This document shows, one piece after another, positions 6,310-61,839 of a stretch of 64,000 nt of DNA. A model generated the notes under the pieces. It was given only the letters and a program-made list of their open reading frames with translations. It was not told the DNA's origin and made no database searches. The DNA comes from Clostridiaceae bacterium (GTDB lineage Bacteria > Bacillota > Clostridia > DUPQ01), in contig DUPQ01000074.1 of the NCBI GenBank assembly GCA_012838235.1, positions 26,709-90,708 on the forward strand, written 5' to 3'. The translations under genes and the position numbers were made by a program. Positions within the stretch are counted from its first letter, which is position 1; the number at the start of each line of letters is the position of its first letter.

Positions 6310-6334
6310 TATTAAGCAGTTTATGATTAAGTAA

Positions 6335-7480: not shown

Positions 7481-7494
7481 AATATCACCTCAAA

Positions 7495-7534
7495 TTTGAG
7501 TTTTCTAAGGGTATTACAGCATAGAAAACTCAAA
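7495..7534. promoter_or_regulatory. 11-bp inverted repeat (TTTGAGTTTTC / GAAAACTCAAA) next to the fic SD, with a third direct copy at 7543-7557
   Basis: Read directly from the sequence. The palindromic CTCAAATTTGAG core directly abuts the GAGGTG SD of fic. Confidence 0.3.
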
Positions 7535-7575
7535 AAGTCAATAAAATTTGAGTTTGCTATGGAAAATATGGAAAG

Positions 7576-7609
7576 AAAACGCAAATTTTTAAGGTAATTT
7601 GCGTTTTCA
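7576..7609 (-). terminator. Intrinsic terminator after the M20 peptidase gene
   Basis: Perfect 13-bp inverted repeat GAAAACGCAAATT...AATTTGCGTTTTC, 34 nt past the stop, with a T-rich tract on the minus strand. Confidence 0.6.
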
Positions 7610-7642
7610 TAGACAAATATTCTTTTATGTTAATCGGTGCAC

Positions 7643-10733: not shown

Positions 10734-10979
10734 ATGAAATATTATCATCGTACCATGGGATATTTATACGGTAAAAAAGAAAGAAAAGGCAGTGCGGCGG
10801 CGGAAGCGGCAATAGTTCTTCCTCTCATTCTTATGCTGGTTATTTCCGTAATGATGATGATTGTGAAGATAAGTTGCGAGGAGATTGAGTATACGGAATA
10901 TGACCTGACTTCCGAGATAAGAACATATGACGGTATAAAGCGTAAGGGGGATATTATATTTGAAACCTTCTTCAAATAG
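10734..10979 (+). CDS. TadE-like pseudopilin-type protein (small)
   Basis: N-terminus ERKGSAAAEAAIVLPLILMLVISV matches the TadE/TadG signature (G-x4-E followed by a hydrophobic helix). The start is uncertain (10734 or 10755) and there is no clear SD. Confidence 0.55.
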   Translation: MKYYHRTMGYLYGKKERKGSAAAEAAIVLPLILMLVISVMMMIVKISCEEIEYTEYDLTSEIRTYDGIKRKGDIIFETFFK

Positions 10980-12942
10980 AAAAAAAGGAGTGATAACGGC
11001 ATTTGTGGCGGTTATAACGCCGGTGCTGATACTGTTGGTATTGGTGCTATCCGATATATATCTTGCCAAAAATGCACTGAATGCGGCGAAAAATGCCGCT
11101 AAAGCATCCTTAGGATGTGTATTGAGTCAATACAGCACATACATGAAGGAGCGGTATTCACTATACGGCTATGAGATGAGCGACCGGGAGGCTGCTTTAC
11201 GTATAACCGAGGCACTGAATAACTCTTCGATAAGCAGAGGGCTTTTTGAAATGGAAATAGTGAATGTGGAAGTAGAGAGAAACAAACCTCTGACAAGTTA
11301 TCCGGTCATATCCGCTCAGATAAACCGCCTTATGAGCGATGAAATATTCAGAACCGTTTTAGCCGAGACAAACGAAAGAATTGAAATGTTTTCCAAGATT
11401 AAGGATGTTATCAGGACTCTTAATGTGAAGATGCAGATAGACGAATTGATAGGCGGATTGAAAAACGCTCATACTTTGTTGAAAGAAACGGTTGAAGAGA
11501 TAAATTCCAGTCAATATTATCATGACCTGATGGAGATTATACGTTACGCGGATTCGTTGTACGGCGAGATGCTTTCCTATATGAAAAGCGGAGATAAGGA
11601 GCAGACGGATACGGCTCAGGTGCTGAAAAAACAGGTAACGGATATTTTGAAAACCAATGTGGATAATATTATATATGTTCTGAAAGAGTACAATAAAAAA
11701 GCCGTTAACCTGTTGAATGAAATGATTAACACCTATGCGGATATACACATACTGTCGGAAAATCTGAAAGGTATAGTGGACGGTATTGAAGATTGTCCCG
11801 AACAGTTAAAGGCCGTATTGAAGATATGTGCAGATACCGTTTATAAAATGGAAACTTCCTTATCGGTGTCGGTTTTGCAAAACATCAAAGCGGTATTGGA
11901 CAGAAATGTTGACTGTCTGGAACAGACCATGAAGCATATGCTGGATACTGTAAGTGAAGAAAAGGATGTTTCTCTATATGATGTTTTTTGTGACGGTTTT
12001 GAAATGTACTATGATGCTGTATATAACGGGGATGTTCTGGACGGGTTTTTTGCATCGGTCATTGATGATATAGTTAAAGATCAGCGGTCCCTGTTAAAAA
12101 AAATGGCGGATGAAGTACTGGAATCAATCATAATAGAAGACATAAGGATAGATGATTTTATCAATCTGGTATCGGAAGGTTATGAGGATACATATATTTT
12201 CCAAGCCGATGCCACCGGCAACACCTCAAAAAGCATATCCGAATCTTTCACGGATTTATCCGAGATGCTGTCTCAAATTAAAGAAGATATCATGATTAAC
12301 GAATACATAATGCTGTATATGAACGGTTTTACGGATTCGGATACCGATCAAGGTGAGAACAGATATTTAGATGGCGAAATTGAGTATATCATTTTCGGAA
12401 ACAGAGACAACAGAAAGAATGTTCAATCGTGCAAAGCGTCTCTTATGGCATTGAGATTTGCTTGTAACGCCATTCATGTCTATACCGATTTGCCTAAGAC
12501 TACCAAAGCCGATGCATTGGCGGCATGTCTTGCTGGCAGCTGGACTTTCGGTGCGGCAGCACCCATAGCCAAGAATCTTATCTTATGTTCCTGGGCTATA
12601 GCGGAATCGGCATACGATACCGAGGCTCTTTGCAGAGGAGCGAAGTGTCCGGTAATCAAGATGGACGGTGACTGGAATCTGGATATAGGTCTGGAAAAGG
12701 GTTTAAGTAAAACACCCGACTGGCTGAAAACTGATTATGATGACTATTTACGGCTTCTTTTATGCACAAAAAGCAATAATGTCAAGGTCTTAAGGCTGCT
12801 GGATCTGATTGCTCTCAATTCACCGGACAATATGGACATGTCTTCGGTGTGCTGCGGCATCAAGGTGGGAGTAACTTTAAAGTTCAAAGGTCTTTTGGGT
12901 ACCGAAAGGAGTTTTTATGTTGAAGCGGAAGACTCATACTGA
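10960..12942 (+). CDS. Large TadG-like N-terminal-anchor protein, 660 aa
   Basis: KKGVITAFVAVITPVLILLVLVLSDIYLAKNALNAAKNAAKA resembles the Tad (TadE/G-like) N-terminal domain. TTG start is preceded by AAGGGGGA. It overlaps the upstream ORF by 20 nt. Confidence 0.6.
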   Translation: MKPSSNRKKGVITAFVAVITPVLILLVLVLSDIYLAKNALNAAKNAAKASLGCVLSQYSTYMKERYSLYGYEMSDREAALRITEALNNSSISRGLFEMEIVNVEVERNKPLTSYPVISAQINRLMSDEIFRTVLAETNERIEMFSKIKDVIRTLNVKMQIDELIGGLKNAHTLLKETVEEINSSQYYHDLMEIIRYADSLYGEMLSYMKSGDKEQTDTAQVLKKQVTDILKTNVDNIIYVLKEYNKKAVNLLNEMINTYADIHILSENLKGIVDGIEDCPEQLKAVLKICADTVYKMETSLSVSVLQNIKAVLDRNVDCLEQTMKHMLDTVSEEKDVSLYDVFCDGFEMYYDAVYNGDVLDGFFASVIDDIVKDQRSLLKKMADEVLESIIIEDIRIDDFINLVSEGYEDTYIFQADATGNTSKSISESFTDLSEMLSQIKEDIMINEYIMLYMNGFTDSDTDQGENRYLDGEIEYIIFGNRDNRKNVQSCKASLMALRFACNAIHVYTDLPKTTKADALAACLAGSWTFGAAAPIAKNLILCSWAIAESAYDTEALCRGAKCPVIKMDGDWNLDIGLEKGLSKTPDWLKTDYDDYLRLLLCTKSNNVKVLRLLDLIALNSPDNMDMSSVCCGIKVGVTLKFKGLLGTERSFYVEAEDSY

Positions 12943-13687
12943 GGGCAGAATAACGGCGGAAAGCTGTATATGTTGCTTTGTGCTCATATTTGTACTGTTG
13001 TTGAGCATACAACTGAACGGATATATAAAGGCACATTCCGATTTACTGTCCGAACTGGACAGGCGACTTGTCAATGGAGCCGTCGCATACCATGCATCGG
13101 GAATATATCTTGTGGATGTTATTACGCAACCGGAGGAGACGGATATAAACAATGCAATATTCTTTGCGGTTCCGTATGATGACTTCTTTACTCTCTCGGT
13201 CTTTGCCGATTACAGCGGGATATTGAAGAAAAACAGAGTTTATGTTCGTTCGGTATCATCTAAATGGGCGGGAGACGGTAAAGGGGTTGTTAAAGAAAAT
13301 ATCTGGGAATTGGACCCTTTGGAACGAGGTCAGGTAATACATAAAATGATGGGAGCCAATCTGGATCATAATTTTCCGACTCTGGATATATATGACGGTT
13401 ATACAAAAGAGGCGGTATCTATCGTAAGTATAAATACGCAGGAAGACAGCTATAAGTCCGGTACCGAACTGAAGAGAAAAATAAAAAAGCATATCGATTC
13501 CATGGATAAGTTTACCTACGGAGAATACAAAGGTTATTCGGTCAGCGGAGAGGATATAAGGGAGAAAACCGTGTTGGTGGTCATTCCCAATGCCAAACTC
13601 ACCGGCCATCAGACCAAGCAGATAAACGATATGTTTAAATATGCAAAAAAAGCGGGTATAAATCTCGAAATCAAGAAATTTCAGTAG
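12917..13687 (+). CDS. TadE-like N-terminal anchor protein with a C-terminal globular domain of unknown function
   Basis: EGRITAESCICCFVLIFVLLLS N-terminus. AAAGGAG SD. It overlaps the upstream ORF by 26 nt. Confidence 0.5.
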   Translation: MLKRKTHTEGRITAESCICCFVLIFVLLLSIQLNGYIKAHSDLLSELDRRLVNGAVAYHASGIYLVDVITQPEETDINNAIFFAVPYDDFFTLSVFADYSGILKKNRVYVRSVSSKWAGDGKGVVKENIWELDPLERGQVIHKMMGANLDHNFPTLDIYDGYTKEAVSIVSINTQEDSYKSGTELKRKIKKHIDSMDKFTYGEYKGYSVSGEDIREKTVLVVIPNAKLTGHQTKQINDMFKYAKKAGINLEIKKFQ

Positions 13688-13737
13688 TTACAATTGTAAA
13701 ATAGTTTCAGGTTATATATAATCAATCCGGGTAGGTA

Positions 13738-15036
13738 ATGGACTTGAAATATCAGCTTGTGCTTGCCGGAGGCGGAGCCAGAGGTTCCTACCAGATAGGT
13801 GTATGGAAAGCTCTGAGAGAACTGAATATAGAGGTTGACATGGTCATAGGTACTTCCGTGGGCTCTATAAACGGGGCGGCTTTTGTCTGCGGTGCATTTG
13901 AGCAGGCGGAATACCTATGGAAGACATTGGATATGCCCACTCTCTTTGATATTACCTATGACAAAGAAGACGGAGAGCCGGGTTCTGTCGAGTATATCGA
14001 ATCCATACTTAAGAATAAAGGGCTGGATACATCCACATTGAAAGGCTATCTGGAGCAGGTAATAGATGAAGAGGTCTTACGTAATTCACCTGTTGATTAT
14101 GCATTGGTAACAGTTTCCTTAACAAAGATGAAACCCGTCATACTGTTTAAAAAAGATATTCCTGAGGGTAAAGTAGTGGATTTCATACTTGCAAGTTCCG
14201 CCGTTCCCGGATTTAAAAAGCAGGAAATAGACGGGGAACTTTATCTGGACGGAGGTTTCTACGATAATCTTCCTATAAATGTACTGATTGAGCACGGTTA
14301 TAAAAATATAATAGCGGTAAGCAATGCCGCCATAGGCGTATACAGGCGTGTTCAGCAATCGGATGCTAAGATATTGTATATAGAGAATCAGCAGATTGAG
14401 GGAGGTATATTGGAATTCGACCCCGAATTGGCAGCCCGAAATATGTTGCTGGGATATCTTGACGGCATGAAAGCATTCGGTAAGTTTATCGGAAAGAATT
14501 ACTATATTTCCGACAATGCAACTCATGACTATGCAAAACCTTTGACCGACAGAGAAATTGAAATGCTTTGTCTGAATGTTAAGAAAAGCAAAAGATTTGT
14601 AACGGAATCGGTGCTGCAGTTTTCTCTTTTAAGAACTTTAAGAAACAATACCGACGGTGTGCTTACCGCAAAAAGAGTGTTTTTCGCGGGAATGGAGATT
14701 ACCGCCAACATGTTCGGTATAGAGAAAATAAGGGCCTATACACCTGAACAGCTCATTACAAAGATAATGGCTGCATACCGTTCCGCTAAATCGGCTCACA
14801 GACAGATTATGAAAGAAAAGAATAACTTTTTTAAGAATCTGATAGATAAAATATGGGATAAAAACAGAATAAGGTTTAACGGAAAGGCTGCTAAAAAGCT
14901 TTATTTGGGACAGGTTCTGATTGATAAGGATAATCCTTCCATCAACCTGATTACAACCACAGAGCACCTTATAGCCAACCTTTTCATATACCTGATACTG
15001 TGGAGACGTAAGAAAATCAAGAAAGACAGGAGATAA
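13738..15036 (+). CDS. Patatin-like phospholipase with C-terminal extension and terminal TM helix
   Basis: GGGARG oxyanion motif, GTSVG (GxSxG) nucleophile, DGGFYDN catalytic Asp, and a C-terminal LIANLFIYLILW helix. Confidence 0.85.
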   Translation: MDLKYQLVLAGGGARGSYQIGVWKALRELNIEVDMVIGTSVGSINGAAFVCGAFEQAEYLWKTLDMPTLFDITYDKEDGEPGSVEYIESILKNKGLDTSTLKGYLEQVIDEEVLRNSPVDYALVTVSLTKMKPVILFKKDIPEGKVVDFILASSAVPGFKKQEIDGELYLDGGFYDNLPINVLIEHGYKNIIAVSNAAIGVYRRVQQSDAKILYIENQQIEGGILEFDPELAARNMLLGYLDGMKAFGKFIGKNYYISDNATHDYAKPLTDREIEMLCLNVKKSKRFVTESVLQFSLLRTLRNNTDGVLTAKRVFFAGMEITANMFGIEKIRAYTPEQLITKIMAAYRSAKSAHRQIMKEKNNFFKNLIDKIWDKNRIRFNGKAAKKLYLGQVLIDKDNPSINLITTTEHLIANLFIYLILWRRKKIKKDRR

Positions 15037-30816: not shown

Positions 30817-31719
30817 TCATATACCGAAAAGGTCCAATGCCTTGGTCTCGTTGGTTACGTTATAGATATTCAGATTGTTTTTTGCATACCGAAAAACCTG
30901 CCCGATAACGGGATCCATCCAACCTTTTGCAAAAAGACGTTTTGCGAAGTTGACCGATAAATCGTCAATATCGTTGTTTTCCACGCTGGAATTGATGTAA
31001 TTCCACATTACGTCATCGGAAAGTTCCACTCCGTTCATCCTCTGAACTTCAATCTTCTCCCTTGCCGAAGCAAAGTCATCACCGCAGAGGTGGGAGAATA
31101 GAAGCAGGTTTATGTAGGAGTGATCCAGATATCTCGGTATTCTCCTGAACATACCCGCAATAGTTATATCATCCATAAGTTCCTTGTCGGTAATGGCCAG
31201 TTTCTCCAAAAGTTTCCAACGGAATTCGTCATCGACATATTCATTGTGCAGAAAATCCTTCATCATCTGTTCCGTTTCATACGGTCTTGCCCCCAAAACA
31301 GCATACCAGTAACATATGAGAATGATAGCCAAAAGATTATCTTTATCCGCAAGGTATGCTTCATGAACGGCTTTCATGCGTTTAGCCATGAATACGGCGG
31401 AAAGCGATCCTCGTGCATTTTTCTTCAACAAACTTGTTTCCTTCATGAGAAGGGTTGTCATGGTTTCCACAAGCATATTTCTGTTTGGCTTATTATCTAT
31501 AAAAATATCCTTATTCTTTTCATAAAGTTTTAATGCCGCCGGATATCTGGTAAGACAGGAATAGGCGGTAATCAACCCTATAACGGATTTCTGAGGCTCG
31601 ATACCGTGGTCTATGAGATTGGAGAAACCTTTTATGGCATGCTCATAGTCTCCTTCTTTGAGGCTTATCATGGAATTGGAAAAATACAGCTTTAAATCTT
31701 TAAAATCTTTTCTTGCCAT
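30817..31719 (-). CDS. Uncharacterised soluble all-helical (TPR-like) protein, third gene of the stator-like operon
   Basis: 300 aa with no TM segment. The N-terminus (LKEGDYEHAIKGFSNLI...) is TPR-like. Its GGAGA SD overlaps the stop of the upstream MotB-like gene (8-nt gap). Confidence 0.5.
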   Translation of the reverse strand: MARKDFKDLKLYFSNSMISLKEGDYEHAIKGFSNLIDHGIEPQKSVIGLITAYSCLTRYPAALKLYEKNKDIFIDNKPNRNMLVETMTTLLMKETSLLKKNARGSLSAVFMAKRMKAVHEAYLADKDNLLAIILICYWYAVLGARPYETEQMMKDFLHNEYVDDEFRWKLLEKLAITDKELMDDITIAGMFRRIPRYLDHSYINLLLFSHLCGDDFASAREKIEVQRMNGVELSDDVMWNYINSSVENNDIDDLSVNFAKRLFAKGWMDPVIGQVFRYAKNNLNIYNVTNETKALDLFGI

Positions 31720-31727
31720 TGTATCTC

Positions 31728-32765
31728 CTACTTTTTCTTGTCAATCGAGTCCAGGTACTCCTGAATTATCTGCCCTATATTTTCTTCCCGTACTACTATG
31801 GAAAATTCTATTCTTCTGTTTTTGGCTTTCTGTGATTCCAAATAGTCATTTTTAATCAACAGTCTGGAGTTTGAATAACCGACTGCTCCGAAGTAACGTG
31901 CATATTGTGTCTGAAGTTTACCATTCTTTTTAAATAATTCCAGTAACACTGCATTGGCTCTGTCTGTGGATAATTTTTGGTTCAGATCAAAATCTCCTTC
32001 ACTGCTGGCATGTCCTTCTATCATGATGGCTTCAATATTTTCACCCGAATCTTTTAATACCTCCTCAAATGCGTCAGCCAATTTTTTTATAAGATTTAAC
32101 GAAGAAGGCTTGAGGTCCGACTTTCCTTGATCAAACAGTATACTCTCCGTAATCATCAGATTCCCGTTATCTCCGATGGTAACTTGTCCCGGACCTAATG
32201 CATCATCTATGGATTTCTTAACTTTTTCAAATATATCCACCTGCAAAACGGCCACTTTCTGAAGTTGTTCTCTCATGGAATCCAGCTCTATTGTATTTAA
32301 AGCTATCAGTTCCAGAAGCTCCTTCTTCTGAGCTTCCAGCGCAGCCTGTTGTTCTGCCAGAATCAGTATGAGGTTTTGAAGGTTGGTTGCTTCTTCCTCC
32401 GACAGTTCCAATGCGGCCTGTTTTGCCGCTAACTCGTTTTCCAACAGACTCAAGGATATTTCTTTTGCTGCAAGTTCTTCTTCCAGCATGATAAGAATGG
32501 TCTGTTTTGTTTCCAGATCCAGCTGTGTTTCCTGAAGAGCAAGTTCCTTGGCTGCAAGATCGTTTCTTGTTGCTTCCAACTGAGCTCCGGTGGCAATATT
32601 AGTGGCTTCCTGTTCATCTAAGTTTATGGATATTATTATGTTTTTAATGAACACTATGAGAACTAAGAAGAGCATTATCAGCACCATTGTGGACATAACG
32701 TCCGCAAATGACGGCCAATAGTTCTCCGGTTCGACTTTTTTCAAATAGCTCACTCTTTGTTTCAA
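31728..32765 (-). CDS. MotB/OmpA-family protein with a long coiled-coil stalk (ZorB-like)
   Basis: N-terminal TM helix with the conserved Asp (WPSFADVMSTMVLIMLFLV). About 130 aa of heptad-like repeats (LAAKELALQETQLDLE...LAAKQAALELSEEE). A C-terminal OmpA-like domain (IEGHASSEGDFDLNQKLSTDRANAV...NRRIEF). TTG start with AGAGGTG SD. Confidence 0.8.
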   Translation of the reverse strand: MKQRVSYLKKVEPENYWPSFADVMSTMVLIMLFLVLIVFIKNIIISINLDEQEATNIATGAQLEATRNDLAAKELALQETQLDLETKQTILIMLEEELAAKEISLSLLENELAAKQAALELSEEEATNLQNLILILAEQQAALEAQKKELLELIALNTIELDSMREQLQKVAVLQVDIFEKVKKSIDDALGPGQVTIGDNGNLMITESILFDQGKSDLKPSSLNLIKKLADAFEEVLKDSGENIEAIMIEGHASSEGDFDLNQKLSTDRANAVLLELFKKNGKLQTQYARYFGAVGYSNSRLLIKNDYLESQKAKNRRIEFSIVVREENIGQIIQEYLDSIDKKK

Positions 32766-32794
32766 TTAGATCACCTCTTATTTCTTATCTTATG

Positions 32795-34255
32795 TTAATC
32801 ATTCTTTATGGCTTTTTCTATTTCATCCAGTTTCTTCTGTATCTTTCCCGAAACCGATTTGTTGTATACCATGGTCTGTTCCGGTAAAGATGCTATGGTC
32901 TGTGCCAGAATCTTCTGATTGTTTTCAAAGGATTCGGACATCTGATAAATATTAGCCATGGATTTTTCCATTGTATCGGCTGTCTTTTCCGCTATAATAT
33001 CGCTGCTTTCTTTAAGAGCTTGCTGGAAGGATTGCTTAATCTTATCGGTCAGTGAAGATATTTCCATGGATGTAGCGATTATGGCTTTTTCAAATGCATC
33101 TTTCATATTGTTGAATGATGCGGCATTTTCCTCACTGGATTGCTTCATTGTATATGTCAGCTGTTGCAAAGCGGAAACGGTCTGATCTACCTGATTTGCC
33201 AGGAAGCCGAGTTGTTCAAGGGTTTCCTGATTGGAAACTGCCATCTGCCCTGCAGCATTCTTAACATCTTCGGCAAACATCCTTATAGCATCGTAGTTCT
33301 TGATTATGAGGTTGGTGGAATCGGATAACGATTCGCTCATCTTAATGAAAGATACATCCATCTTTTCTACGTTTTCTTTAAGGTTAAGGTTGAAGTCCGA
33401 CATGTCTCTCATGGCAACGGCCAATGTGGATATTGCGCTGTCGAATCTTTCCACAGTAGTGTCAAGTGCCTGTGACGAAACCGAAACATCCATGACCACA
33501 TTGGTCAGTTTGTCACCGAAGGATTCCACTGTTGCTCTGAGAGTGTCTTCTATCTTTGTACCGAATTCCACGAAGGTATCCTTGAGTATTCTGTTCATCA
33601 TGGTATACTCGGTTTCCTTGTCTTTGGCTATCAGTACTGCGATATTATTGTCAAGATACTCTTCTATATCAATCATCAGTGACCTTTTCTGGTCTTCGCA
33701 GTCAATGCCGATTAAGGTTAAGTTGAGAACAACCGAACCGAAAAGTCCTACAAGGCTGGTGGAGAAAGCGGCTCCCATTCCTTTTGCGGCACCGGCAAGT
33801 CTTACAAGTATCTCGTTCCAGTCCAATGATGCCGACCCTATATCCTGAAGCAGAACCTTAACCAGTTCGCTTACCGAAATTGTCAGTCCTATGAATGTTC
33901 CCAACAGTCCCAATGTAACCATCATGGCCTGGCTCTTTCTTACGAATGTTTCGCCCATTGTAGGAATTTTCAGATTCTCCTCGAAATTCTTTTCAATAAT
34001 GGCTTGAGTGTTGACATTGTTGCTGTTTATCTCACCTGCAACTTTGTAGTCCTGAACAATTTTGTTGAGCATCTCATCGTTAAATGTACCTGCCCGTCTG
34101 TTCTGCCTGTTATTAATCTGCTTACTGAGTTTCTGATACTTTAACTTAATAAGGATGTTGATAACAAATGCGGCCAGGAAAATAAGTATGATAAGTACTA
34201 TTACGGTTTTTCCTGATATGTCTATCGATTTAAATAATGATATTAGGTTATTCAT
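32795..34255 (-). CDS. MotA/TolQ/ExbB-family proton-channel protein with a ~300-aa C-terminal helical tail (ZorA-like)
   Basis: TM1 (TVIVLIILIFLAAFVINILI), then the channel helices MVTLGLLGTFIGLTISV and GMGAAFSTSLVGLFGSVVLNLTLIGI. Residues ~185-486 are hydrophilic and helix-prone with no TM segment. AAGGAG SD. Confidence 0.75.
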   Translation of the reverse strand: MNNLISLFKSIDISGKTVIVLIILIFLAAFVINILIKLKYQKLSKQINNRQNRRAGTFNDEMLNKIVQDYKVAGEINSNNVNTQAIIEKNFEENLKIPTMGETFVRKSQAMMVTLGLLGTFIGLTISVSELVKVLLQDIGSASLDWNEILVRLAGAAKGMGAAFSTSLVGLFGSVVLNLTLIGIDCEDQKRSLMIDIEEYLDNNIAVLIAKDKETEYTMMNRILKDTFVEFGTKIEDTLRATVESFGDKLTNVVMDVSVSSQALDTTVERFDSAISTLAVAMRDMSDFNLNLKENVEKMDVSFIKMSESLSDSTNLIIKNYDAIRMFAEDVKNAAGQMAVSNQETLEQLGFLANQVDQTVSALQQLTYTMKQSSEENAASFNNMKDAFEKAIIATSMEISSLTDKIKQSFQQALKESSDIIAEKTADTMEKSMANIYQMSESFENNQKILAQTIASLPEQTMVYNKSVSGKIQKKLDEIEKAIKND

Positions 34256-34365
34256 ATGATCTCCTTAGAATTTGGTTTTATTACAGTAATTCTACCATAA
34301 AAAAACGCGTTTTTTTCATTATTCACAGAATGTTTACATTATTCCCGTCCTGATAACATAAAACA

Positions 34366-34395
34366 CCTGTTTTTGTCACAATTAACAGGTTTTTT
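34366..34395 (+). terminator. Terminator-like hairpin in the divergent intergenic region
   Basis: CCTGTT-12 nt-AACAGG followed by TTTTTT. There is no plus-strand gene upstream for it to terminate, so its function is unclear. Confidence 0.3.
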
Positions 34396-34448
34396 AACTT
34401 AAAACACTGTTATTGTTCTTCAATTAGATGTTTTGATGTAACAAAAAG

Positions 34449-34477
34449 TTCACAATTATATAGCGCTGTGGTATACT
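34449..34477 (+). promoter_or_regulatory. Promoter of queT
   Basis: TTCACA, 17-nt spacer, TGg-TATACT. It leaves only about 24 nt of leader before the ATG. Confidence 0.55.
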
Positions 34478-34501
34478 TTTCCAAGAAAAGAGGGAGGCTG
34501 C

Positions 34502-50819: not shown

Positions 50820-50895
50820 AGGGAAGTAGTTCAATCGGTAGAGCGGCGGTCTCCAAAACCGTAAGTTGCGGGTTCAAATCCTGTCTTCCCTGCCA
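50820..50895 (+). tRNA. tRNA-Trp: tRNA-Trp (anticodon CCA), CCA end encoded
   Basis: 7-bp acceptor stem AGGGAAG/CTTCCCT, D-loop AGTTCAATCGGTAGAG, anticodon loop CT-CCA-AA, T-arm GGGTTCAAATCC, discriminator G plus CCA. Confidence 0.9.
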
Positions 50896-50903
50896 GAACA
50901 GTG

Positions 50904-50946
50904 AATACGACATATTTCGTTATGAGATGTGTCGTATTTTATTATT
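50904..50946 (+). terminator. Intrinsic terminator after tRNA-Trp
   Basis: 12-bp stem (AATACGACATAT/ATGTGTCGTATT, with one G-U pair) followed by TTATTATT. Confidence 0.6.
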
Positions 50947-50994
50947 ACAAGTTATACTTGACAAGCACACTTTGCATGAGTTGCTCGAAATACC

Positions 50995-51052
50995 GGTCAG
51001 TTTTAGTTGGAAATGTTGGTCAGTTTTAGCCGGAAATGTTGGTCAGTTCTTA
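50995..51052 (+). repeat. 23-bp tandem direct repeat, 2.5 copies (GGTCAGTTTTAGYYGGAAATGTT)
   Basis: Copies at 50995-51017, 51018-51040 and a partial copy at 51041-51052. The array abuts the promoter TTGATT-17-TGa-TAGACT (51053-51081) of the first ATPase gene. Confidence 0.85.
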
Positions 51053-51111
51053 TTGATTAGTGCTTATCTTTGTGATAGACTGTTGTCAGAAACTGCGAGG
51101 TGTGACAATTA

Positions 51112-52401
51112 ATGAGTAAAGTATTTGACAAAACAAAATACAAATCCAGGATAATTGATTCATTGGTCGAGAAAAATTTAAGAATATTCAGTGCAGTGTG
51201 TATTGAGGGTCCTAAATGGTGCGGAAAAACATGGACATCCTCATATCATGCTAACAGTGATTTTTTTGTTGGCGATCCGTCAGGTAATTTCTCTAATAGA
51301 ATGTTAGCGGAAACAGAACCTTATACAGTACTGCAAGGCGATAAGCCGCGATTGATTGATGAATGGCAGGAAGTACCGACACTATGGGATGCGGTAAGAT
51401 CTTTTGTAGATGAAAGCGGTGAAAAAGGACAGATTATTCTGACCGGGTCATCAACTCCCGTAAGCAAAGGTATTCTACATAGCGGTACGGGTAGGATTAG
51501 AAACATCAGGATGAATACAATGTCTCTGTATGAGTCAGGTGATTCCGACGGTTTAATATCATTAAAAGATTTATGCGAAAACAAATTTGAGCCGAAGCTA
51601 TTAGAAGAAGCAAAGCTTGAAAGGCTGGCATACTTAATAGTTCGGGGCGGTTGGCCGGGAAATATCGATGCTTCTTTTGATGACTGTGCTGAACTTGCTA
51701 TAGGTTATATGGAAAATATAGCGAAAACAGACCTGAAAAAGTTGGACCGGGATATTGATTATAATGAACATAAAGCAAAATTAATTCTTAAATCGTTAGC
51801 GAGAAATGAATCAACAACAGTATCCAATCAAAGCATTTTGAGAGATATTGTTGATAATGACGCCGATTCTATCAGTAAAAATACATTGGCTAAGTATTTG
51901 AATGCGTTTGACAGAATGTTTCTGTTTAACAATCAAGAGCCGTTTTCACCTAATATAAGGTCATCATTAAGAGTCAAACAAATGGAAAAAAGACATTTTT
52001 CCGATCCTGCAATGGCATGTGCAATGCTGAAGTTGACACCTAAGAAAATGATGAATGATTTAAACACTTTCGGTTTTATGTTTGAAGCTTTGGTAGAAAG
52101 AGATTTATCAATATATGCACAAGCTATGAATGCAAAGTTGTTTCATTATCAAGACTATAAAGGAAATGAAATTGATGCCGTTATGGAATTGGATGACGGC
52201 AATTGGTGTGCTTTTGAAATTAAATTAGGTCTTAATAAGGCGGAAGAAGGCGCTGAAAATCTGATTAAAGTATGTAATGCAATAGTTGATAACGGCGGAA
52301 AAGAACCGTTATTAAAATGCGTAATATACGGAGCCGGTAATATGGCATATAGAAATGCTAACGGAGTTTACATACTTCCTCTAACTTCTTTGAAGCAATA
52401 A
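51112..52401 (+). CDS. AAA+ ATPase of the AAA_14/DUF4143 type (COG1373-like), paralog A
   Basis: Walker A IEGPKWCGKTWT, Walker B-like LIDEWQEVP and GS arm ILTGSS. C-terminal GNEIDAVMELDDGNWCAFEIKLG is a D...ExK-like motif. Confidence 0.8.
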   Translation: MSKVFDKTKYKSRIIDSLVEKNLRIFSAVCIEGPKWCGKTWTSSYHANSDFFVGDPSGNFSNRMLAETEPYTVLQGDKPRLIDEWQEVPTLWDAVRSFVDESGEKGQIILTGSSTPVSKGILHSGTGRIRNIRMNTMSLYESGDSDGLISLKDLCENKFEPKLLEEAKLERLAYLIVRGGWPGNIDASFDDCAELAIGYMENIAKTDLKKLDRDIDYNEHKAKLILKSLARNESTTVSNQSILRDIVDNDADSISKNTLAKYLNAFDRMFLFNNQEPFSPNIRSSLRVKQMEKRHFSDPAMACAMLKLTPKKMMNDLNTFGFMFEALVERDLSIYAQAMNAKLFHYQDYKGNEIDAVMELDDGNWCAFEIKLGLNKAEEGAENLIKVCNAIVDNGGKEPLLKCVIYGAGNMAYRNANGVYILPLTSLKQ

Positions 52402-52577
52402 TCCCGAGTTGTAAAACCGGGTATTGAAAATACCGTTTTCTTTTAGCAATACATGAAGATTATTGTTCTTAAAGGTGAAGTTTAATGGAGTCAGCAAAGT
52501 TTTTTATAATTATTGGTGTTTGTCTATTGAAAATATAACATTAGTTAAGTATATAATGGTAGACAGGAGAGATTGTT

Positions 52578-52934
52578 ATGGAAAACGCAATGTTGATTAT
52601 CGGTAAGAACATAAGGAAATTAAGAAAACAAAGCGGTTTTAAGCAAAGCAGTATTGCGAAGTATTTGAATGTTGATTAAAGTTTAATGTCAAAGATTGAG
52701 AAAGGGGAGCAGTCTATAACATCTGATATGCTGGACAGGTTGGCTGTATTATTCGGAATACCGACAGAAAATCTCTTGCATGAAATAATTTCAACAAAGC
52801 ATATTTCATTTCCTTTCAGAGCAAGCAAGATGAACGAGAAAAATTTAGAAGCAATCAGCGCCATAAATCGGATTGTTTTTAATTTAAGATTTATGAGAAA
52901 ATGTCAGGAGTTTGGAAAAAAAGCTGCTGAATGA
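52578..52934 (+). pseudogene. XRE-family HTH regulator interrupted by an in-frame TAA
   Basis: ATG at 52578 with AGGAGAG SD gives MENAMLIIGKNIRKLRKQSGFKQSSIAKYLNVD-stop(52677-52679)-SLMSKIEKGEQSITSDMLDRLAVLFGIP... The stop falls between helix 2 and helix 3 of the HTH. The downstream ORF 52686-52934 is in the same frame. Confidence 0.6.
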
Positions 52935-53342
52935 TTGTTTTTTTTGAATATTTTCAGTAGGTGTAAGATTCAACTCTATCCTCTAAACCGGTAAAACAGT
53001 AAAGATTATGACTTTATAATTTTAAGTATATAGAAATGAATAGATAATATAGTACCCATAACATATATTCCGATGTCTATGTGTAAAATACGTATATTCA
53101 TTTGCAAAATAGAGCAAAAAAAAACAATTTGCATTTTTAAGACAGAAAATCCGGCATAATAATACTAACGCAGTATATCACTTACGCTGATGAAGGGTGA
53201 TAAGGTTAGCAAATTGTGAGGGTATTTACCCGAAGATTATATTGCATCCAAAACAAAATAGAATAATTTTGGAGGTATTTAACATTCTGTTTTGTATTGC
53301 ATGTAAACGCTCCTATACCCGGTTTGTGCGTTTTCCAATGCT

Positions 53343-53371
53343 ATTATACCTCCAAATTGACACTTTTCCAA
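53343..53371 (-). promoter_or_regulatory. Orphan near-consensus sigmaA promoter on the minus strand
   Basis: Minus strand reads TTGGAA, 17-nt spacer, TATAAT. About 25 nt downstream lies AGGAG, then 7 nt, then a 7-codon mini-ORF (MQYKTEC, 53279-53302). There is no long ORF downstream. Confidence 0.4.
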
Positions 53372-53538
53372 GATTCGCATGTATTTATCTTTTAAAAAAG
53401 ACTATATATGTCAATTTGAACTTTTAGCCTATTTATTGTTAAAGTTGAAAAAGTTCACGAAAAAGACACATAACAGCCCTTTGTATGACATAGAAGGGAA
53501 ATATAATGAGGGCACAGTTAAGAAAGGAGAAACTGAAA

Positions 53539-54195
53539 ATGAAAAAAATAACTAAAATATTTATAACAGGATTACTGACCTTGATAATGATAGCAGGTAT
53601 GAGTATACCGGCAATGGCTGCCACCGAGACCGAATTGACGGATATGGTCAGTGAAGAAATGACGGCAAATTATCTTTATACGGAACTGGCTGCAAAATTC
53701 CCGGAGGTCAAGGTGTTTGCCAACTTAGCCAAGTCCGAGATGCGTCATATAGCGGCTCTCAAGAAAGCTGCTGCAAGACTGGGACTGTCGGTAGAGGCTG
53801 CCAAGCCTGCGGACATTTTAATTCCCGAAACCGTGGAAGATGCTTTGGCTTTTGCGATGGCTTATGAATTGGAAGACATCGAGATGCTTAAAGTACTGAT
53901 CGAAAAGGAAGAAGATGCGATGTTGAAGAGAGTTCTAAATAATCTTCTTAAAGGATCGGAAAGGCACTATAACGCTTTGAAGAGAGTAGCTGATAACGGT
54001 GTTGAGAACTGTGTCTGCAACGAAGATGGATGCACTTATCAGAACAAAGTCAATAACCGGAGCAAAAACGGCGGTCAGGGCAATGGTCAGAAAGCTAATG
54101 CTAATGCACAAAAGGGTATGGGCAACGGTCAGAAGGGGCAGGGTAACCGCAACAACTCCGGCTGCACATCGGATCAGTGCAAGAGAGCACAGTAG
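53539..54195 (+). CDS. Secreted ferritin-like (DUF2202-type) protein with a Gly/Asn/Gln-rich tail
   Basis: Signal peptide MKKITKIFITGLLTLIMIAGMSIPAMA. EEMTANYLYTELAAKF and KSEMRHIAAL resemble the DUF2202 di-iron-like motifs. The tail reads NGGQGNGQKANANAQKGMGNGQKGQGNRNN. AAGGAG SD. Confidence 0.65.
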   Translation: MKKITKIFITGLLTLIMIAGMSIPAMAATETELTDMVSEEMTANYLYTELAAKFPEVKVFANLAKSEMRHIAALKKAAARLGLSVEAAKPADILIPETVEDALAFAMAYELEDIEMLKVLIEKEEDAMLKRVLNNLLKGSERHYNALKRVADNGVENCVCNEDGCTYQNKVNNRSKNGGQGNGQKANANAQKGMGNGQKGQGNRNNSGCTSDQCKRAQ

Positions 54196-54238
54196 GCGGT
54201 AATGCAACTGACATTTAATTCAATTGCCGATAAAAATC

Positions 54239-54267
54239 AAGGGCAGGGTTTAAAAACCCTGTCCTTT
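54239..54267 (+). terminator. Hairpin terminator after the ferritin-like gene
   Basis: AAGGGCAGGG-loop-CCCTGTCCTT (10 bp with one G-U pair) followed by TT. Confidence 0.5.
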
Positions 54268-54295
54268 GGTGTATAAATATGGTGTGGAGGTTGCC

Positions 54296-54985
54296 ATGAA
54301 TCGGATATTAATCGCAGATGACAATGAAGATATTGTCAATATTCTTAAAAAGTTTGCCGAAAAAGAGAATTTGGATGCGGATGTGGCCTTTGACGGACAA
54401 CAGGCATTGGATATGTTTGATAAGAATAATTACGATTTGATTCTGTTGGATATAATGATGCCTAAAAAGGACGGCTATGAGGTTTGCAAGACCATCCGCA
54501 AGACTTCCATGGTCCCCATTATAATGATAACGGCCAAAGGGGAGGATTATGAAAAGATTATGGGTCTGGATCTGGGTGCCGACGACTATATTGTCAAACC
54601 GTTTTCCGTTGCCGAGGTAATGGCAAGGGTCAGGGCTATCTTAAGAAGAATTGAAAAGAAATCCGGTCAGAATCCCGCATTGGTTATAGATTCCATGAAA
54701 CTGGACCTGGATTCCTATACTTTTGAAGTGGACGGGCAAAATGTCGATCTGACTAAAAAAGAATTCGAGTTGCTGTGGACATTGGCTTCCAATACCGGAA
54801 AAGTCTATACCAGAGAAAACCTTCTGGATTCTTTGTGGGGTTATGACTACTACGGAGATTCCAGGACGGTAGACACTCATGTTAAACGTCTGAGAGCTAA
54901 ACTGGCAGCTTTCCCCGGATTGGATGATGTGATAAAAACCATTCGCGGAGTGGGATATAAATTTAAGGAGCCGGATAACAAATGA
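54296..54985 (+). CDS. OmpR-family response regulator
   Basis: MNRILIADDNEDI, the phospho-acceptor in LILLDIMMP, the conserved Lys in DYIVKPF, and a winged helix (LTKKEFELLW...RTVDTHVKRLRAKL). GGAGG SD. Confidence 0.9.
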   Translation: MNRILIADDNEDIVNILKKFAEKENLDADVAFDGQQALDMFDKNNYDLILLDIMMPKKDGYEVCKTIRKTSMVPIIMITAKGEDYEKIMGLDLGADDYIVKPFSVAEVMARVRAILRRIEKKSGQNPALVIDSMKLDLDSYTFEVDGQNVDLTKKEFELLWTLASNTGKVYTRENLLDSLWGYDYYGDSRTVDTHVKRLRAKLAAFPGLDDVIKTIRGVGYKFKEPDNK

Positions 54986-56469: not shown

Positions 56470-56496
56470 CAAAGAATAGCAATCATAAAATATTAT

Positions 56497-56524
56497 GTCC
56501 CGAAAACAGCATCGTATTCGGGAC
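56497..56524 (+). terminator. Hairpin after the histidine kinase gene
   Basis: GTCCCGAA-12 nt-TTCGGGAC. The trailing T-tract is weak. Confidence 0.4.
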
Positions 56525-56578
56525 AATTGTAATGTATATGATTATTTTTGCTTTGTAATAATACTTAAAATCGGTGCA

Positions 56579-56666
56579 GGTGCAAATAATTAAGCCGTAA
56601 ACCCTGCAAAAGGTGCAAATAAGTCGTAAAACAACATGTAAATTGGTGCAAGTTATGCTATAATGG
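56579..56666 (+). repeat. 33-bp periodic degenerate tandem repeat (GGTGCAARTWA... three times), plus an extra GGTGCA at 56573
   Basis: GGTGCAA starts at 56579, 56612 and 56645, an exact 33-bp phasing. Units 1 and 2 share GGTGCAAATAA...CGTAAA. Unit 3 overlaps TGc-TATAAT (56656-56664). Confidence 0.75.
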
Positions 56667-56692
56667 CATTATTAAAAGCAAGGAGATTCAAT

Positions 56693-58063: not shown

Positions 58064-58127
58064 AAAGTGCACAATGAAAATGCTGAAAAGTGTACAATGA
58101 AACACTTGAAAAGTGCACAATGAAGTG
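58060..58127 (+). repeat. 23-bp tandem direct repeat, 3 copies (core TGAAAAGTGYACAATGAA)
   Basis: Cores at 58061-58078, 58084-58101 and 58107-58124. The first overlaps the stop codon of the upstream ATPase gene. The array abuts TGt-TATTAT (58126-58134). Confidence 0.85.
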
Positions 58128-58151
58128 TTATTATGTTCTCGGAGGGTTGTC

Positions 58152-61821: not shown

Positions 61822-61839
61822 AAATCGGAGGATTATTTT

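Follow-up and report, generated by a model that had tools for sequence, protein, structure and literature searches.

The locus described here raises the question of whether a ZorAB-like membrane motor in a Gram-positive bacterium is part of an anti-phage system or of a resident machine of the cell envelope. A preliminary description, made from the sequence alone, proposed that the genes provide Zorya-like defence through a new effector and named a distinct, proton-motive-force-driven envelope machine as the alternative. To our knowledge, every known ZorAB-based system is anti-phage, so that kinship alone favours defence.

A three-gene locus between pcp and queT

Within the window, i.e., the entire 64,000-nucleotide stretch of Clostridiaceae DNA that was analysed, the locus consists of three genes on the minus strand, which also carries all features described below: gene A (32795-34255; 486 aa, ATG start), encoding a ZorA-like protein of the MotA/ExbB/TolQ superfamily; gene B (31728-32765; 345 aa, TTG start), encoding a ZorB/MotB-like protein; and gene C (30817-31719; 300 aa, ATG start), encoding a soluble TPR-like alpha-solenoid. 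The genes are separated by 29 nt (A-B) and 8 nt (B-C), a Shine-Dalgarno sequence is found at all three starts (AAGGAG, GAGGTG and AGGAG, respectively), that of C overlapping the stop codon of B, and in several relatives the frames of B and C directly adjoin or share a few nucleotides. Judging from these gaps, signals and frames, A-B-C is a predicted operon. Upstream of A, a block kept in six relatives (34289-34342) contains the box ATAATGTAAACATTCTGTGAA followed by the extended -10-like element TGGTAGAAT, approximately 35 nt before the ATG of A; together, they probably constitute the operon promoter. A consensus promoter scan chose another candidate, TTGGAA-18-TATAAT at 34484-34455. The flanking genes, pcp (Peptidase_C15) and queT, are both located on the strand opposite to the trio, and no flagellar, chemotaxis, Ton or Tol genes were called in the ~3.7-62 kb portion of the window. 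The preliminary description had given the same reading frames, spacing, ribosome-binding sites, flanks and lack of flagellar, chemotaxis, TonB and Tol genes, all of which hold.

Architecture of the A and B proteins

Protein A contains three hydrophobic segments (residues 7-41, 110-136 and 163-186). The first membrane helix (approximately residues 17-37; 34145-34207; residues 13-48 in the structural model) is followed by a Lys/Arg-rich stretch so that, by the positive-inside rule, the N-terminus is probably outside and the following loop inside. The membrane-proximal cytoplasmic domain (residues 38-108; 33932-34144) carries a VNTQA..E motif of which V81, N82, T83, Q84, A85 and E88 are invariant in a 20-sequence alignment; we conjecture that this region might be equivalent to the cytoplasmic domain of ZorA that bears the Ca2+ site. 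Also invariant in this alignment are G116, L117, G119, T120 and F121 of the LGLLGTF motif (LGLLGTFxGL) in the second membrane helix (residues 109-136; 33848-33931) and A163, F164, T166 and S167 of the AFSTS motif (GMGxAFxTSLxG) in the third (residues 159-186; 33698-33781). A channel-lining role of the Thr of the second helix (Thr120) follows from what is established for ExbB, TolQ and MotA. In a profile search seeded with the A family, query positions 96-182 align with residues 134-212 of ZorA (8vvn_C), which places this second helix on its ZorA counterpart. These features directly support a three-helix ExbB/TolQ/ZorA architecture with conserved channel Thr and Ser residues.

The last 301 residues of A lack hydrophobic segments, contain 1 Pro and 5 Gly, and are modelled with low confidence in the monomer (pLDDT 35-55). 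According to the alignment, the proximal tail (residues 187-335; 33251-33697) is common to A and its relatives from a short-tailed two-gene form of the locus, and it is very highly conserved (IEEYLDN, KDKETEYTMMNRIL, VVMDVSVSS, FNxNLxNNIExMDVSF). The distal tail (residues 336-486; 32798-33250), a candidate C-docking module, includes the tip motif F..N...LA.TIA.LPEQ...YN (residues 443-465; 32861-32929), which holds the sole proline of the tail and in which F443, N446, A451, I454, L457, P458, Q460 and Y464 are invariant among the 20 aligned sequences. The tip motif is present in all long-tailed A proteins inspected and missing from the short-tailed form.

Protein B has one hydrophobic segment (residues 17-51), which starts with the motif WPSFADVMST (residues 17-26; 32688-32717) containing the presumed ion-binding residue, Asp22. 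This motif aligns with YWMSFSDLMS of ZorB (8vvn_B). As WPSF.DVMST, with the Asp, it is conserved in no less than 90 % of the 82 B sequences compared, which represent both the three-gene and the two-gene form. The same level of conservation across the 82 sequences is seen for the motifs GH, N..LS..R and NRRI of the OmpA-like peptidoglycan-binding domain (residues 210-310; 31836-32138; PF00691, E=4.9e-10). The 134-residue extracytoplasmic stalk (residues 45-178; 32232-32633) is enriched in L, E, A and Q with 0 Pro and 1 Gly, contains repeated ELAAK-type segments, yields weak matches to coiled-coil Pfam families and thus appears coiled-coil-like; relative to the 232-position PADLOC ZorB1 model, it represents an insertion of ~70-90 residues. 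Hydrophobicity, alignment and domain searches accordingly bear out what had first been read from the two proteins, namely one N-terminal and two channel helices followed by a membrane-free, helix-prone tail of ~300 residues in A, and an Asp-bearing membrane helix, a stalk of ~130 residues and an OmpA domain in B.

ZorA and ZorB as the nearest relatives

Because protein A from the window scores below the Pfam MotA_ExbB cut-off (12.3 vs 22.9 bits), its assignment to the superfamily relies on relatives scoring above this threshold (30 bits), on matches to ZorA profiles and on the fold. Of all PADLOC families, the trio matches ZorA and ZorB alone, with E-values of 8e-9 to 1e-7 for A (50 bits to ZorA1 for the Acetivibrio orthologue) and 6.5e-30 for B (ZorB1, 102-123 bits over the full model length). 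In the PDB, the A-family profile matched 8vvn_C (E=6e-6) and 8qyk_A (E=4e-3), both identified as ZorA chains (PMC11890865) and the only membrane proteins of solved structure that it matched, with no hits to MotA, ExbB or TolQ chains; the best PDB match of B is ZorB 8vvn_B (E=2e-8), with the Asp helix aligned. The cut-offs of the Zor NCBIfam equivalogs are far above the scores of A and B. At the level of sequence, the nearest relatives of A and B are ZorA and ZorB, so that the assignment initially made to ZorAB, as opposed to MotAB or TolQR/ExbBD, stands. Classification of B as a flagellar MotB was rejected (43 bits vs the 301-bit NCBIfam cut-off).

The trio shares with Zorya (especially type I; 8QYD, 8QYK, 8VVN) the three membrane helices and long all-helical cytoplasmic tail of A, the Asp-bearing helix and C-terminal OmpA-like peptidoglycan-binding domain of B, and a soluble partner encoded downstream. 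However, the tail of A comprises ~300 residues compared to ~500 in E. coli ZorA (residues 223-729; PMC11946911), a stalk insertion of ~70-110 residues in B is missing from ZorB models, the partner is a TPR-like solenoid rather than ZorC/D, ZorE or ZorF/G, and the hosts are single-membrane Clostridia in which the trio occupies a fixed housekeeping locus and is inherited vertically. Other members of the 5:2 superfamily are more distant in sequence. Over the ~230 N-terminal residues of A, Foldseek matches ExbB, TolQ and ZorA, with PomA ranking 50th; ExbB-ExbD and TolQ-TolR provide the closest structural counterparts of the membrane part (E=6e-5, target-normalised TM-score <=0.58). ExbB and TolQ share with A the three-helix topology and the Thr motifs of the channel but have no long tail and no PDB match to the A family at the sequence level; ExbD and TolR, unlike B, lack an OmpA domain, and these systems partner with TonB or TolA and the outer membrane, which the trio hosts do not have. 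The flagellar-type stators (MotAB, MotPS, PomAB) belong to the same superfamily, and the OmpA domains of MotB and MotS match B weakly, but MotA has four membrane helices and a FliG-contacting cytoplasmic domain instead of three helices and a C-terminal tail, and there are no flagellar neighbours at the trio. Finally, B residues 15-324 align with positions 14-341 of 343 in the NCBIfam models PRK09039.1-5 ('peptidoglycan-binding protein', ~340 aa), a presumably alphaproteobacterial family; this end-to-end alignment implies a shared N-terminal membrane helix, long helical middle part and OmpA domain, but with 37-60 bits it falls far short of the cut-offs of 305-615 bits.

Protein C and the distal tail of A

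Protein C has no hydrophobic segments, and its AlphaFold model is all-helical, with 19 helices and a mean pLDDT of 90.2. Foldseek retrieved only generic TPR, PPR, LapB and MamA matches (TM-score <=0.34), of which TPR and PPR repeat proteins are the best in the PDB. No Pfam, PADLOC or NCBIfam family, and hence no defence model, matched C, and searches of these three collections and with Foldseek detected no nuclease, helicase or other enzyme domain. Relatives of C give weak TPR_1 and TPR_2 Pfam matches, and generic multi-repeat TPR proteins align only to approximately positions 5-75 of the C profile, which delineate an N-terminal TPR-like repeat pair (residues 5-75; 31495-31707). We are confident, on the strength of the model, that C is a TPR-like solenoid without a catalytic domain, as the earlier reading of C as soluble, TPR-like, devoid of assignable motifs and lacking ZorC/D/E-like nuclease or helicase features had anticipated. 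Among 1.84 billion representative proteins, the C family has 35 matches at E<=1e-30, nearly all of them full-length stand-alone proteins of 295-340 aa. C is a previously undescribed, trio-specific helical-repeat partner of a ZorAB-like pair.

The A-B-C order is kept wherever the sequence extends far enough, the exception being two Acetivibrio genomes in which A and C are intact and B is missing. Unless B resides at another site in these two genomes, they are hard to square with an obligatory A5B2 motor.

Complete long-tail loci, which represent no fewer than four genomic contexts, all have C directly 3' of B, and C is co-conserved with A and B. A sister form of the locus lacks C: in Thermohalobacter, Marinisporobacter, Sporosalibacterium, Wukongibacter, Natronincola and Lutisporaceae, we identified uncharacterised two-gene A'B' pairs in which A' is 35-39 % identical to A over residues 17-335 and B' is 32-38 % identical to B. 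Channel motifs, motifs of the proximal tail and a B protein of the OmpA type with a stalk are common to these pairs and the trio, but the tail of A' stops ~40 residues past FSEFN...MDVSF, without the LPEQ tip, and there is no conserved third gene of any kind. C is present in every long-tailed locus with enough sequence and missing in 19 of the 19 short-tailed loci that reach past B, so that co-occurrence with the distal tail is complete (loci L001-L069 vs L070-L089). Because the two-gene form is both short-tailed and devoid of C, C tracks the distal tail; these observations directly support the conclusion that C is confined to loci whose A protein includes the distal 150 tail residues.

Distribution and inheritance of the trio

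Homologues of A form ~200 clusters, in which nearly all full-length proteins are 473-518 aa long; the exact A protein is found in 114 blocks of the assembly index, and the trio hosts include Acetivibrio, Herbivorax and Thermoclostridium. Relatives with pcp identities as low as 36-44 % still have the trio at the pcp/queT site, and the identities of A, B and C drop in parallel with those of pfk, fba, a DEAD-box helicase, an amidohydrolase, pcp and queT. Conservation of A is comparable to that of the neighbouring housekeeping enzymes, and C diverges faster (36-46 % identity where A shows 51-72 %). The trio is present on each of the 11 informative metagenomic contigs that have the same neighbours, with no empty site; because the survey returns only gene-bearing genomes, constant presence refers to these 11 contigs, which come from two sub-clades. 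No relatives of the trio were found on plasmids, phages or IMG/VR viral contigs.

The neighbours of the trio are metabolic, translation-related or wall-related, and the flanks vary between clades. The 139 flanking proteins examined, which come from 19 loci, include no recurrent defence family (no PADLOC family has more than one match) and no conserved neighbour that indicates a client process; wall-related domains recur weakly (PG_binding_1, four occurrences; LysM and GH3, three each), with YkuD with PG_binding_1, LysM and GH3 adjoining some loci. Pilus, secretion, division, sporulation or cellulosome genes are not consistently linked to the trio.

Thus, the trio has the appearance of an operon fixed in the chromosome and vertically inherited in a large group of Clostridia. 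The preliminary description had asked whether the trio is patchy or close to known defence genes, and had named core-genome status with synteny as the pattern that would speak against defence. Our observations resemble this latter pattern, which makes a defence role less likely; the proposal of Zorya-like defence through a new effector does not fit the synteny, parallel divergence, 11 of 11 occupied sites and lack of mobile copies, and the envelope machine fits the evidence better.

A resident motor or a defence system?

We consider it unlikely, although worth weighing, that the trio is a new Zorya subtype of Gram-positive bacteria that became fixed in the chromosome of the lineage, with A and B sensing phage-caused damage of the wall or membrane, the tail activating or recruiting C, and C acting by a non-nuclease mechanism or as a bridge to a nuclease encoded elsewhere. 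Apart from the kinship of A and B, this scenario draws on the Zorya layout of a long tail with a downstream soluble partner, given that the Zorya tail is needed for effector recruitment (PMC11946911, PMC11890865), and on the fast evolution of C. It has to contend with the lack of ZorC, D, E, F and G and of any enzymatic signature in C, as well as with the housekeeping-like conservation of A and the vertical, syntenic inheritance without empty sites, mobile copies or nearby defence enrichment. By comparison, the known Zorya types are unevenly distributed between strains, which is 'typical of anti-phage systems' (PMC11890865), and are under-represented in single-membrane bacteria (PMC11946911).

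Rather unlikely, too, is a force-generating motor for a specific, non-sensing envelope process, such as surface motility, secretion or assembly of surface structures, wall remodelling at division, or sporulation, in which C would link the motor to its machinery as TolQR, GldLM and AglRQS serve theirs. Other non-flagellar 5:2 motors drive such processes (PMC9389320, PMC12204202). The wall-related genes near some loci are compatible with this possibility but no client genes are consistently linked and the flanks differ between clades. The trio hosts named above belong to spore-forming, often cellulolytic groups, which would suit such a motor; however, the element upstream of A resembles a housekeeping extended -10 rather than a sporulation-type promoter, a weak counterargument, and the elaborated output end of the trio (the tail and the TPR protein) is cytoplasmic, in contrast to the extracytoplasmic one of TonB, TolA and GldM. 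That C is merely a conserved neighbour of unrelated function, with the A-B pair alone as the functional unit, is highly improbable: although a two-gene form without C exists, C directly follows B in all complete long-tail loci, often in an overlapping or abutting frame, matches the distal tail exactly, stays with A even where B is lost, and belongs to a family that hardly extends beyond the proteins expected from trios.

We therefore favour, with a probability of about 0.5, the interpretation of the trio as an ion-driven 5:2 motor of the ZorAB type that is passed on vertically and has C as its dedicated partner in the cytoplasm, and not as a mobile anti-phage island. By analogy with ZorAB, MotAB and ExbBD, five copies of A would encircle the paired membrane helices of a B dimer, and the proline-free stalk of B would bridge the membrane to the thick Gram-positive wall, placing the OmpA domains in the peptidoglycan. 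Once B is anchored, ion flow via the Asp would turn A, along with its bundled cytoplasmic tail, around B; the LPEQ-containing tail tip would dock C, which would act as an adaptor to clients. The trio would then belong to the resident equipment of the cell and would link wall or envelope state, together with membrane potential, to some process in the cytoplasm. Its housekeeping-like inheritance suggests that motors of this type also have an everyday role in the Gram-positive cell envelope.

Organization of the operon and its motor-like subunits

ORF calling placed the three genes of the trio where the preliminary description had them, all on the minus strand: gene A at 32795-34255 (486 aa), gene B at 31728-32765 (345 aa, TTG start) and gene C at 30817-31719 (300 aa). 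The short gaps between A and B (29 nt) and between B and C (8 nt), together with a Shine-Dalgarno sequence upstream of every start, agree with the proposed single operon, and the location between pcp and queT, both on the opposite strand, was likewise confirmed. No intrinsic terminator was found downstream of C. In the precomputed Pfam annotation of the same genome, no flagellar, chemotaxis, Ton or Tol genes are called between about 3.7 and 62 kb of the window, in agreement with the claim, and the window annotation shows no TonB, TolA or Pal gene near the trio; the surroundings consist only of housekeeping genes, such as infC-rpmI-rplT, hisIE, pfk, fba, engB, tig, nusB, xseAB, dxs, rho and a DEAD-box helicase gene. 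The divergent A-queT intergenic region (34256-34501) contains two conserved boxes that have TGTGAA in common, AATTGTGAACTTTTTGTTAC on the queT side and ATAATGTAAACATTCTGTGAA on the A side, and an inverted repeat, ACCTGTT-N12-AACAGGT; Rfam detected no preQ1 riboswitch, other riboswitch or other RNA in this region.

The A protein was originally read as three membrane helices followed by a tail of about 300 aa. Hydrophobic segments are indeed located at residues 7-41, 110-136 and 163-186, with only 70 aa between the first two helices, and none occurs in the remaining 301 residues, which form a helical tail. The motifs quoted earlier for A and B are present in the sequences and conserved in the family alignments, in which Thr120, Thr166 and Ser167 of A are invariant. 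Thr and Ser residues at these positions line the ion path in the superfamily, as established for ExbB, TolQ and MotA. Although A itself scores below the cut-off of the Pfam MotA_ExbB model (12.3 against 22.9 bits), relatives with 35-39% identity exceed it (30.0 and 23.8 bits). The first 230 residues of modelled A, where pLDDT is 70-86, adopt a fold like that of ExbB, TolQ and ZorA, the three-helix class, with PomA ranking just 50th in the Foldseek search; identity in the structural alignments is 12-19%, that is, the similarity is remote. The conserved Thr/Ser residues, the relatives passing the Pfam threshold and the fold identify A as a channel subunit of the MotA/ExbB/TolQ superfamily. The tail of the monomer model is unreliable and carries no weight for tail length or bundling.

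Within this superfamily, A is closest to ZorA. In PADLOC, ZorA was the sole family matched (E=8e-9), and the Acetivibrio orthologue of A produced a stronger match (E=3.5e-14; 50 bits on ZorA1). A profile built from 20 A-family sequences and run against all PDB sequences retrieved, among membrane proteins, only ZorA chains, 8vvn_C (E=6e-6) and 8qyk_A (E=4e-3), from a Shewanella type I Zorya and from E. coli, respectively (PMC11890865). No chain of MotA, PomA, ExbB, TolQ or GldL was matched among the PDB sequences, so that the profile search keeps A outside flagellar MotA and TolQ. The lone A sequence yielded only noise against the PDB (designed helical repeats, tropomyosin); hence the family profile is required to detect ZorA. 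All NCBIfam matches of A fall far under their cut-offs, as with ZorA2 (16.7 bits, cut-off 700). The A motifs VNTQAIIEK and IEEYLDN are possibly equivalent to the Ca2+ site of ZorA.

The claims made for B also hold: there is one hydrophobic segment (17-51), the stalk (residues 45-178) contains no proline and a single glycine, and the OmpA-like domain is significant in Pfam (E=4.9e-10). The membrane-helix Asp is retained in at least 90% of 82 B sequences. B matches PADLOC ZorB1 with 102 bits (E=6.5e-30), and its orthologues cover the entire 232-position ZorB1 model except for an internal insertion. The closest solved structure is ZorB 8vvn_B, with YWPSFADVMS of B aligned against YWMSFSDLMS. The NCBIfam scores are 39.5 bits for ZorB2 and 26.3 bits for ZorB1 (cut-off 400 for both). 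The stalk, encoded at 32232-32633 on the minus strand, contains the internal repeats DLAAKELALQE, EELAAKEISLS and NELAAKQAALE. Total B length differs among clades (298-346 aa), which suggests that the stalk varies in length as well.

Collectively, three independent lines (PADLOC, PDB sequence search and fold) agree on the ZorA/ZorB-like nature of the pair and, along with the relatives that pass the superfamily threshold and the conserved Thr/Ser and Asp residues, show that A and B are a remote but genuine sister of ZorAB.

A TPR-like third component

C lacks hydrophobic segments, in accord with its description as soluble, and its AlphaFold model (pLDDT 90.2) is a solenoid of 19 helices. The best PDB fold matches in Foldseek are consensus TPR and designed PPR proteins, LapB and MamA, all with TM-scores of at most 0.34; since C passes no Pfam TPR model, the TPR-like assignment is valid at the fold level only. 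Searches of Pfam, NCBIfam and PADLOC assigned C to no family, the Acetivibrio orthologue also has no PADLOC match, and Foldseek against viral models returned generic solenoids, again with TM-scores of at most 0.34, and nothing specific; the fold comparison gave no lead to function. A Rep_fac_C match (21.5 bits) was dismissed as a chance similarity in which no stretch passes by itself. The statement that C has none of the nuclease or helicase features of ZorC, ZorD or ZorE is borne out by the lack of such domains in Pfam and NCBIfam, the lack of a PADLOC model and the plain solenoid fold. C is thus predicted, from its model, to act in scaffolding or as an adaptor rather than as an enzyme.

The C family is small. 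A word-indexed search retrieved 20-26 clusters, and an exhaustive profile search covering 1.84 billion representatives gave 35 matches at E<=1e-30, which are almost without exception stand-alone, full-length proteins of 295-340 aa. The latter search extends the family to about 35-40 clusters, beyond which only generic TPR proteins are matched, at positions 5-75.

Long-tail, short-tail and B-less loci

A survey with one genome per species detected relatives of A in 158 genomes. ORFs called in the 80 retrieved loci were searched with the A, B and C profiles, and two forms were distinguished. The long-tail form (L001-L069) is found in uncultured Clostridia, Acetivibrio, Herbivorax, Thermoclostridium and Ruminiclostridium. 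It encodes an A of about 480-530 aa when each ORF is taken from its first start (486-492 aa in most called proteins), a B of 303-346 aa and a C of 300-338 aa, with reading frames that often abut or overlap. C is homologous throughout these loci (20-27% identity over the full length), and the A-B-C order is maintained except where contig ends cut the locus and in two Acetivibrio genomes, so that C is co-conserved with the stator pair.

The short-tail form (L070-L089), whose hosts include Thermohalobacter, Marinisporobacter, Sporosalibacterium, Wukongibacter, Natronincola and Lutisporaceae, encodes an A of 330-377 aa that aligns only to residues 17-335 of the long-tail protein, and a similar stalked OmpA-type B of about 300-328 aa. 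Short-tail A stops about 40 residues past FSEFN...MDVSF and lacks the distal tail (residues 336-486) with its invariant tip, LA.TIA.LPEQ...YN. Neither C nor any other conserved third gene was found in the short-tail loci, which appear to represent an uncharacterised two-gene sister system; examples in varied housekeeping contexts are L079 (locus positions 5959-7965) and L084 (6001-8072). C therefore occurs exactly where the distal 150 residues of the A tail occur, and this match is the main basis for the docking of C on the tail tip that we propose below. Short-tail pairs with Clostridia-type neighbours were also seen in two contigs, L071 and L072, labelled as Caulobacteraceae (MAG) and Calditrichales; L071 has the same neighbour set as the Lutisporaceae locus L078. 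Both contigs are probably mis-binned or contaminant.

In the two exceptional genomes, Acetivibrio sp. (L063, locus positions 5974-8539) and A. straminisolvens (L067, 5968-8297), C directly follows A after a gap of 50-110 nt, and no B is encoded within 6 kb of these genes. A of both loci retains LGLLGTF, IEEYLDN and LPEQ. B may lie elsewhere in these genomes; if not, A and C keep a B-independent function, which would weaken the model of an obligatory motor.

Genomic context

In loci that share the pcp/queT site, the identity of the trio drops together with that of its housekeeping neighbours: A, pfk and fba are 96, 100 and 96% identical in L010, 88, 86 and 90% in L011, 75, 80 and 85% in L014, and 72, 83 and 84% in L015. 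In L016-L027, where pfk and fba lie outside the retrieved flanks, the values are 51-53% for A, 63-65% for the amidohydrolase, 53-57% for queT and 36-42% for pcp. Empty sites were sought in metagenome contigs by an independent scan that took the neighbouring amidohydrolase as its seed. The amidohydrolase-pcp arrangement was recovered in 13 contigs, and the trio is present in all 11 that are long enough, the other two being too short. In distant clades the contexts differ yet are ordinary: in Acetivibrio the trio is flanked by an aldolase gene and a GH3 gene, and in another Acetivibrionales genome by a Na/Pi transporter gene and trkH.

Searches of 72,556 plasmids, 50,697 phage records and the IMG/VR contigs returned no relatives of A. 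The flanks of 19 diverse loci, 139 proteins in all, match no PADLOC family more than once and contain no flagellar or chemotaxis genes. Pfam families that recur there are metabolic, with a faint trace of wall-related functions (PG_binding_1 four times, LysM and GH3 three times each). On this evidence the trio is not a defence island; it behaves as a conserved, apparently non-mobile chromosomal operon of Clostridia. Being core and syntenic was an outcome that the preliminary description had set against its Zorya-like reading, and this is largely what was found, but the synteny is with housekeeping genes rather than with flagellar, pilus or cell-division genes.

Several other features of the window deserve mention. 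A possible toxin or defence module lies at 10960-15036, some 17 kb away from the trio, and consists of three consecutive plus-strand genes whose products are a DUF5702 protein of 660 aa, a CDI_toxin_EC869_like protein of 256 aa and a patatin-like phospholipase of 432 aa. At 6335-7480 (minus strand), amid housekeeping genes, lies the gene of a 381-aa protein with a Fic/Fic_N domain. The region 50820-59432, which may be an integrated element, begins with a tRNA-Trp gene (50820-50895), after which the GC content is low (0.35 at 51-54 kb), and contains three AAA_14/DUF4143 ATPase paralogues (at 51112, 56663 and 58113) interspersed with a two-component system. At the right end of the window begins an operon for a V-type ATPase, with genes for subunits I, c and E at 59851-63860 (plus strand).

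Comparison with known motors

Two classes of known motors could be rejected. Flagellar MotA has four membrane helices and, between helices 2 and 3, a cytoplasmic domain that contacts FliG, in contrast to the three helices of A; B scores below the NCBIfam thresholds for MotB (43 bits, cut-off 301) and MotS (33.5 bits, cut-off 264), and no flagellar genes are nearby, so a stator of the MotAB or MotPS kind does not fit. The ExbBD-TonB and TolQR-TolA systems combine an ExbD/TolR-type B subunit with TonB or TolA acting on the outer membrane, whereas B of the trio is OmpA-type and has no TonB, TolA or Pal gene nearby.

Zorya is the closest comparison, and one alternative is that the trio is a Gram-positive Zorya variant that became fixed. 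The ZorA and ZorB features speak for it, and to this extent the Zorya-like system of the preliminary description stands. The remainder finds no support: the type-defining effectors, the curated scores and the accessory-genome behaviour all fail. ZorC and ZorD (type I), ZorE (type II) and ZorF and ZorG (type III) are absent beside the trio, and A and B fall far under the NCBIfam equivalog scores. The tail of A, at about 300 aa, is shorter than that of ZorA, and B has a long stalk inserted between the membrane helix and the OmpA domain that the ZorB models lack. Furthermore, Zorya is patchy and occurs in defence islands or mobile contexts, whereas the trio is syntenic and tracks housekeeping divergence; published Zorya types differ between strains, "typical of anti-phage systems" (PMC11890865), and Zorya has been reported to be under-represented in single-membrane bacteria (PMC11946911). 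We consider a fixed Zorya variant unlikely, albeit the best placed of the alternatives.

Literature on ZorAB-like systems, non-flagellar stators of Clostridia and the C. thermocellum orthologue contained no description of the trio, and recent surveys of MotAB relatives left out ZorAB-like proteins as too remote (PMC12505986). As far as the searchable literature goes, the trio has not been described before; by analogy, it would work like ZorAB.

Possible mechanism and implications

By homology with the solved ZorAB, MotAB and ExbBD complexes, the trio would form an A5B2 complex. By analogy, ions passing Asp22 of B inside the A pentamer would drive A around B, the OmpA domains would anchor B on peptidoglycan, and the five A tails would bundle into a cytoplasmic shaft, with C putatively docking on the conserved LPEQ tip. 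The hosts are labelled Clostridia or Bacillota and, judging from taxonomy, presumably have a single membrane. The 134-residue, proline-free stalk would span about 20 nm if it forms one continuous helix and, being in principle long enough, may give the OmpA domains access to a thick wall in a cell with only one membrane. The inner wall zone of Gram-positive bacteria has about the same width (~20 nm).

The elaborated end of the trio is cytoplasmic and non-enzymatic, which makes a transducer the most economical reading; we see an even chance that the trio couples attachment to the wall, together with the membrane potential, to a client in the cytoplasm that C recruits. In its fuller form, to which we assign a probability of roughly 0.4, the trio would be a non-immune ZorAB-type motor, fixed as a housekeeping system since before the families of single-membrane Clostridia diverged, that senses or makes use of the mechanics of the thick wall through the stalked anchor and relays them to the cytoplasm by way of the rotating tail and the dedicated TPR adaptor. 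A motor for another envelope process appears improbable to us. That C is an unrelated neighbour, adjacent by chance, is very improbable and was rejected, given that C is co-conserved with A and B and tracks the distal A tail.

To our knowledge, all ZorAB-type motors studied so far are part of mobile anti-phage systems of Gram-negative bacteria. The trio has the same motor design with a long B stalk, a shorter tail and a new non-enzymatic partner, and its hosts include cellulose-degrading Clostridia of biotechnological relevance. Should it prove defensive, it would represent a separate Zorya type of Gram-positive bacteria whose effector is of a novel kind. If the housekeeping reading is true, the Zorya motor lineage would gain its first member outside defence, and Gram-positive bacteria their first non-flagellar 5:2 motor with a physiological role; the trio could then also resemble the ancestor that was recruited for Zorya immunity. 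The coexistence of a long tail with C, a short tail without C, and A and C without B constitutes a natural experiment on the role of the tail, and the trio, which brings tailed 5:2 motors into Gram-positive bacteria in a conserved and apparently non-mobile role, offers a test of such motors as general envelope-to-cytoplasm transducers.
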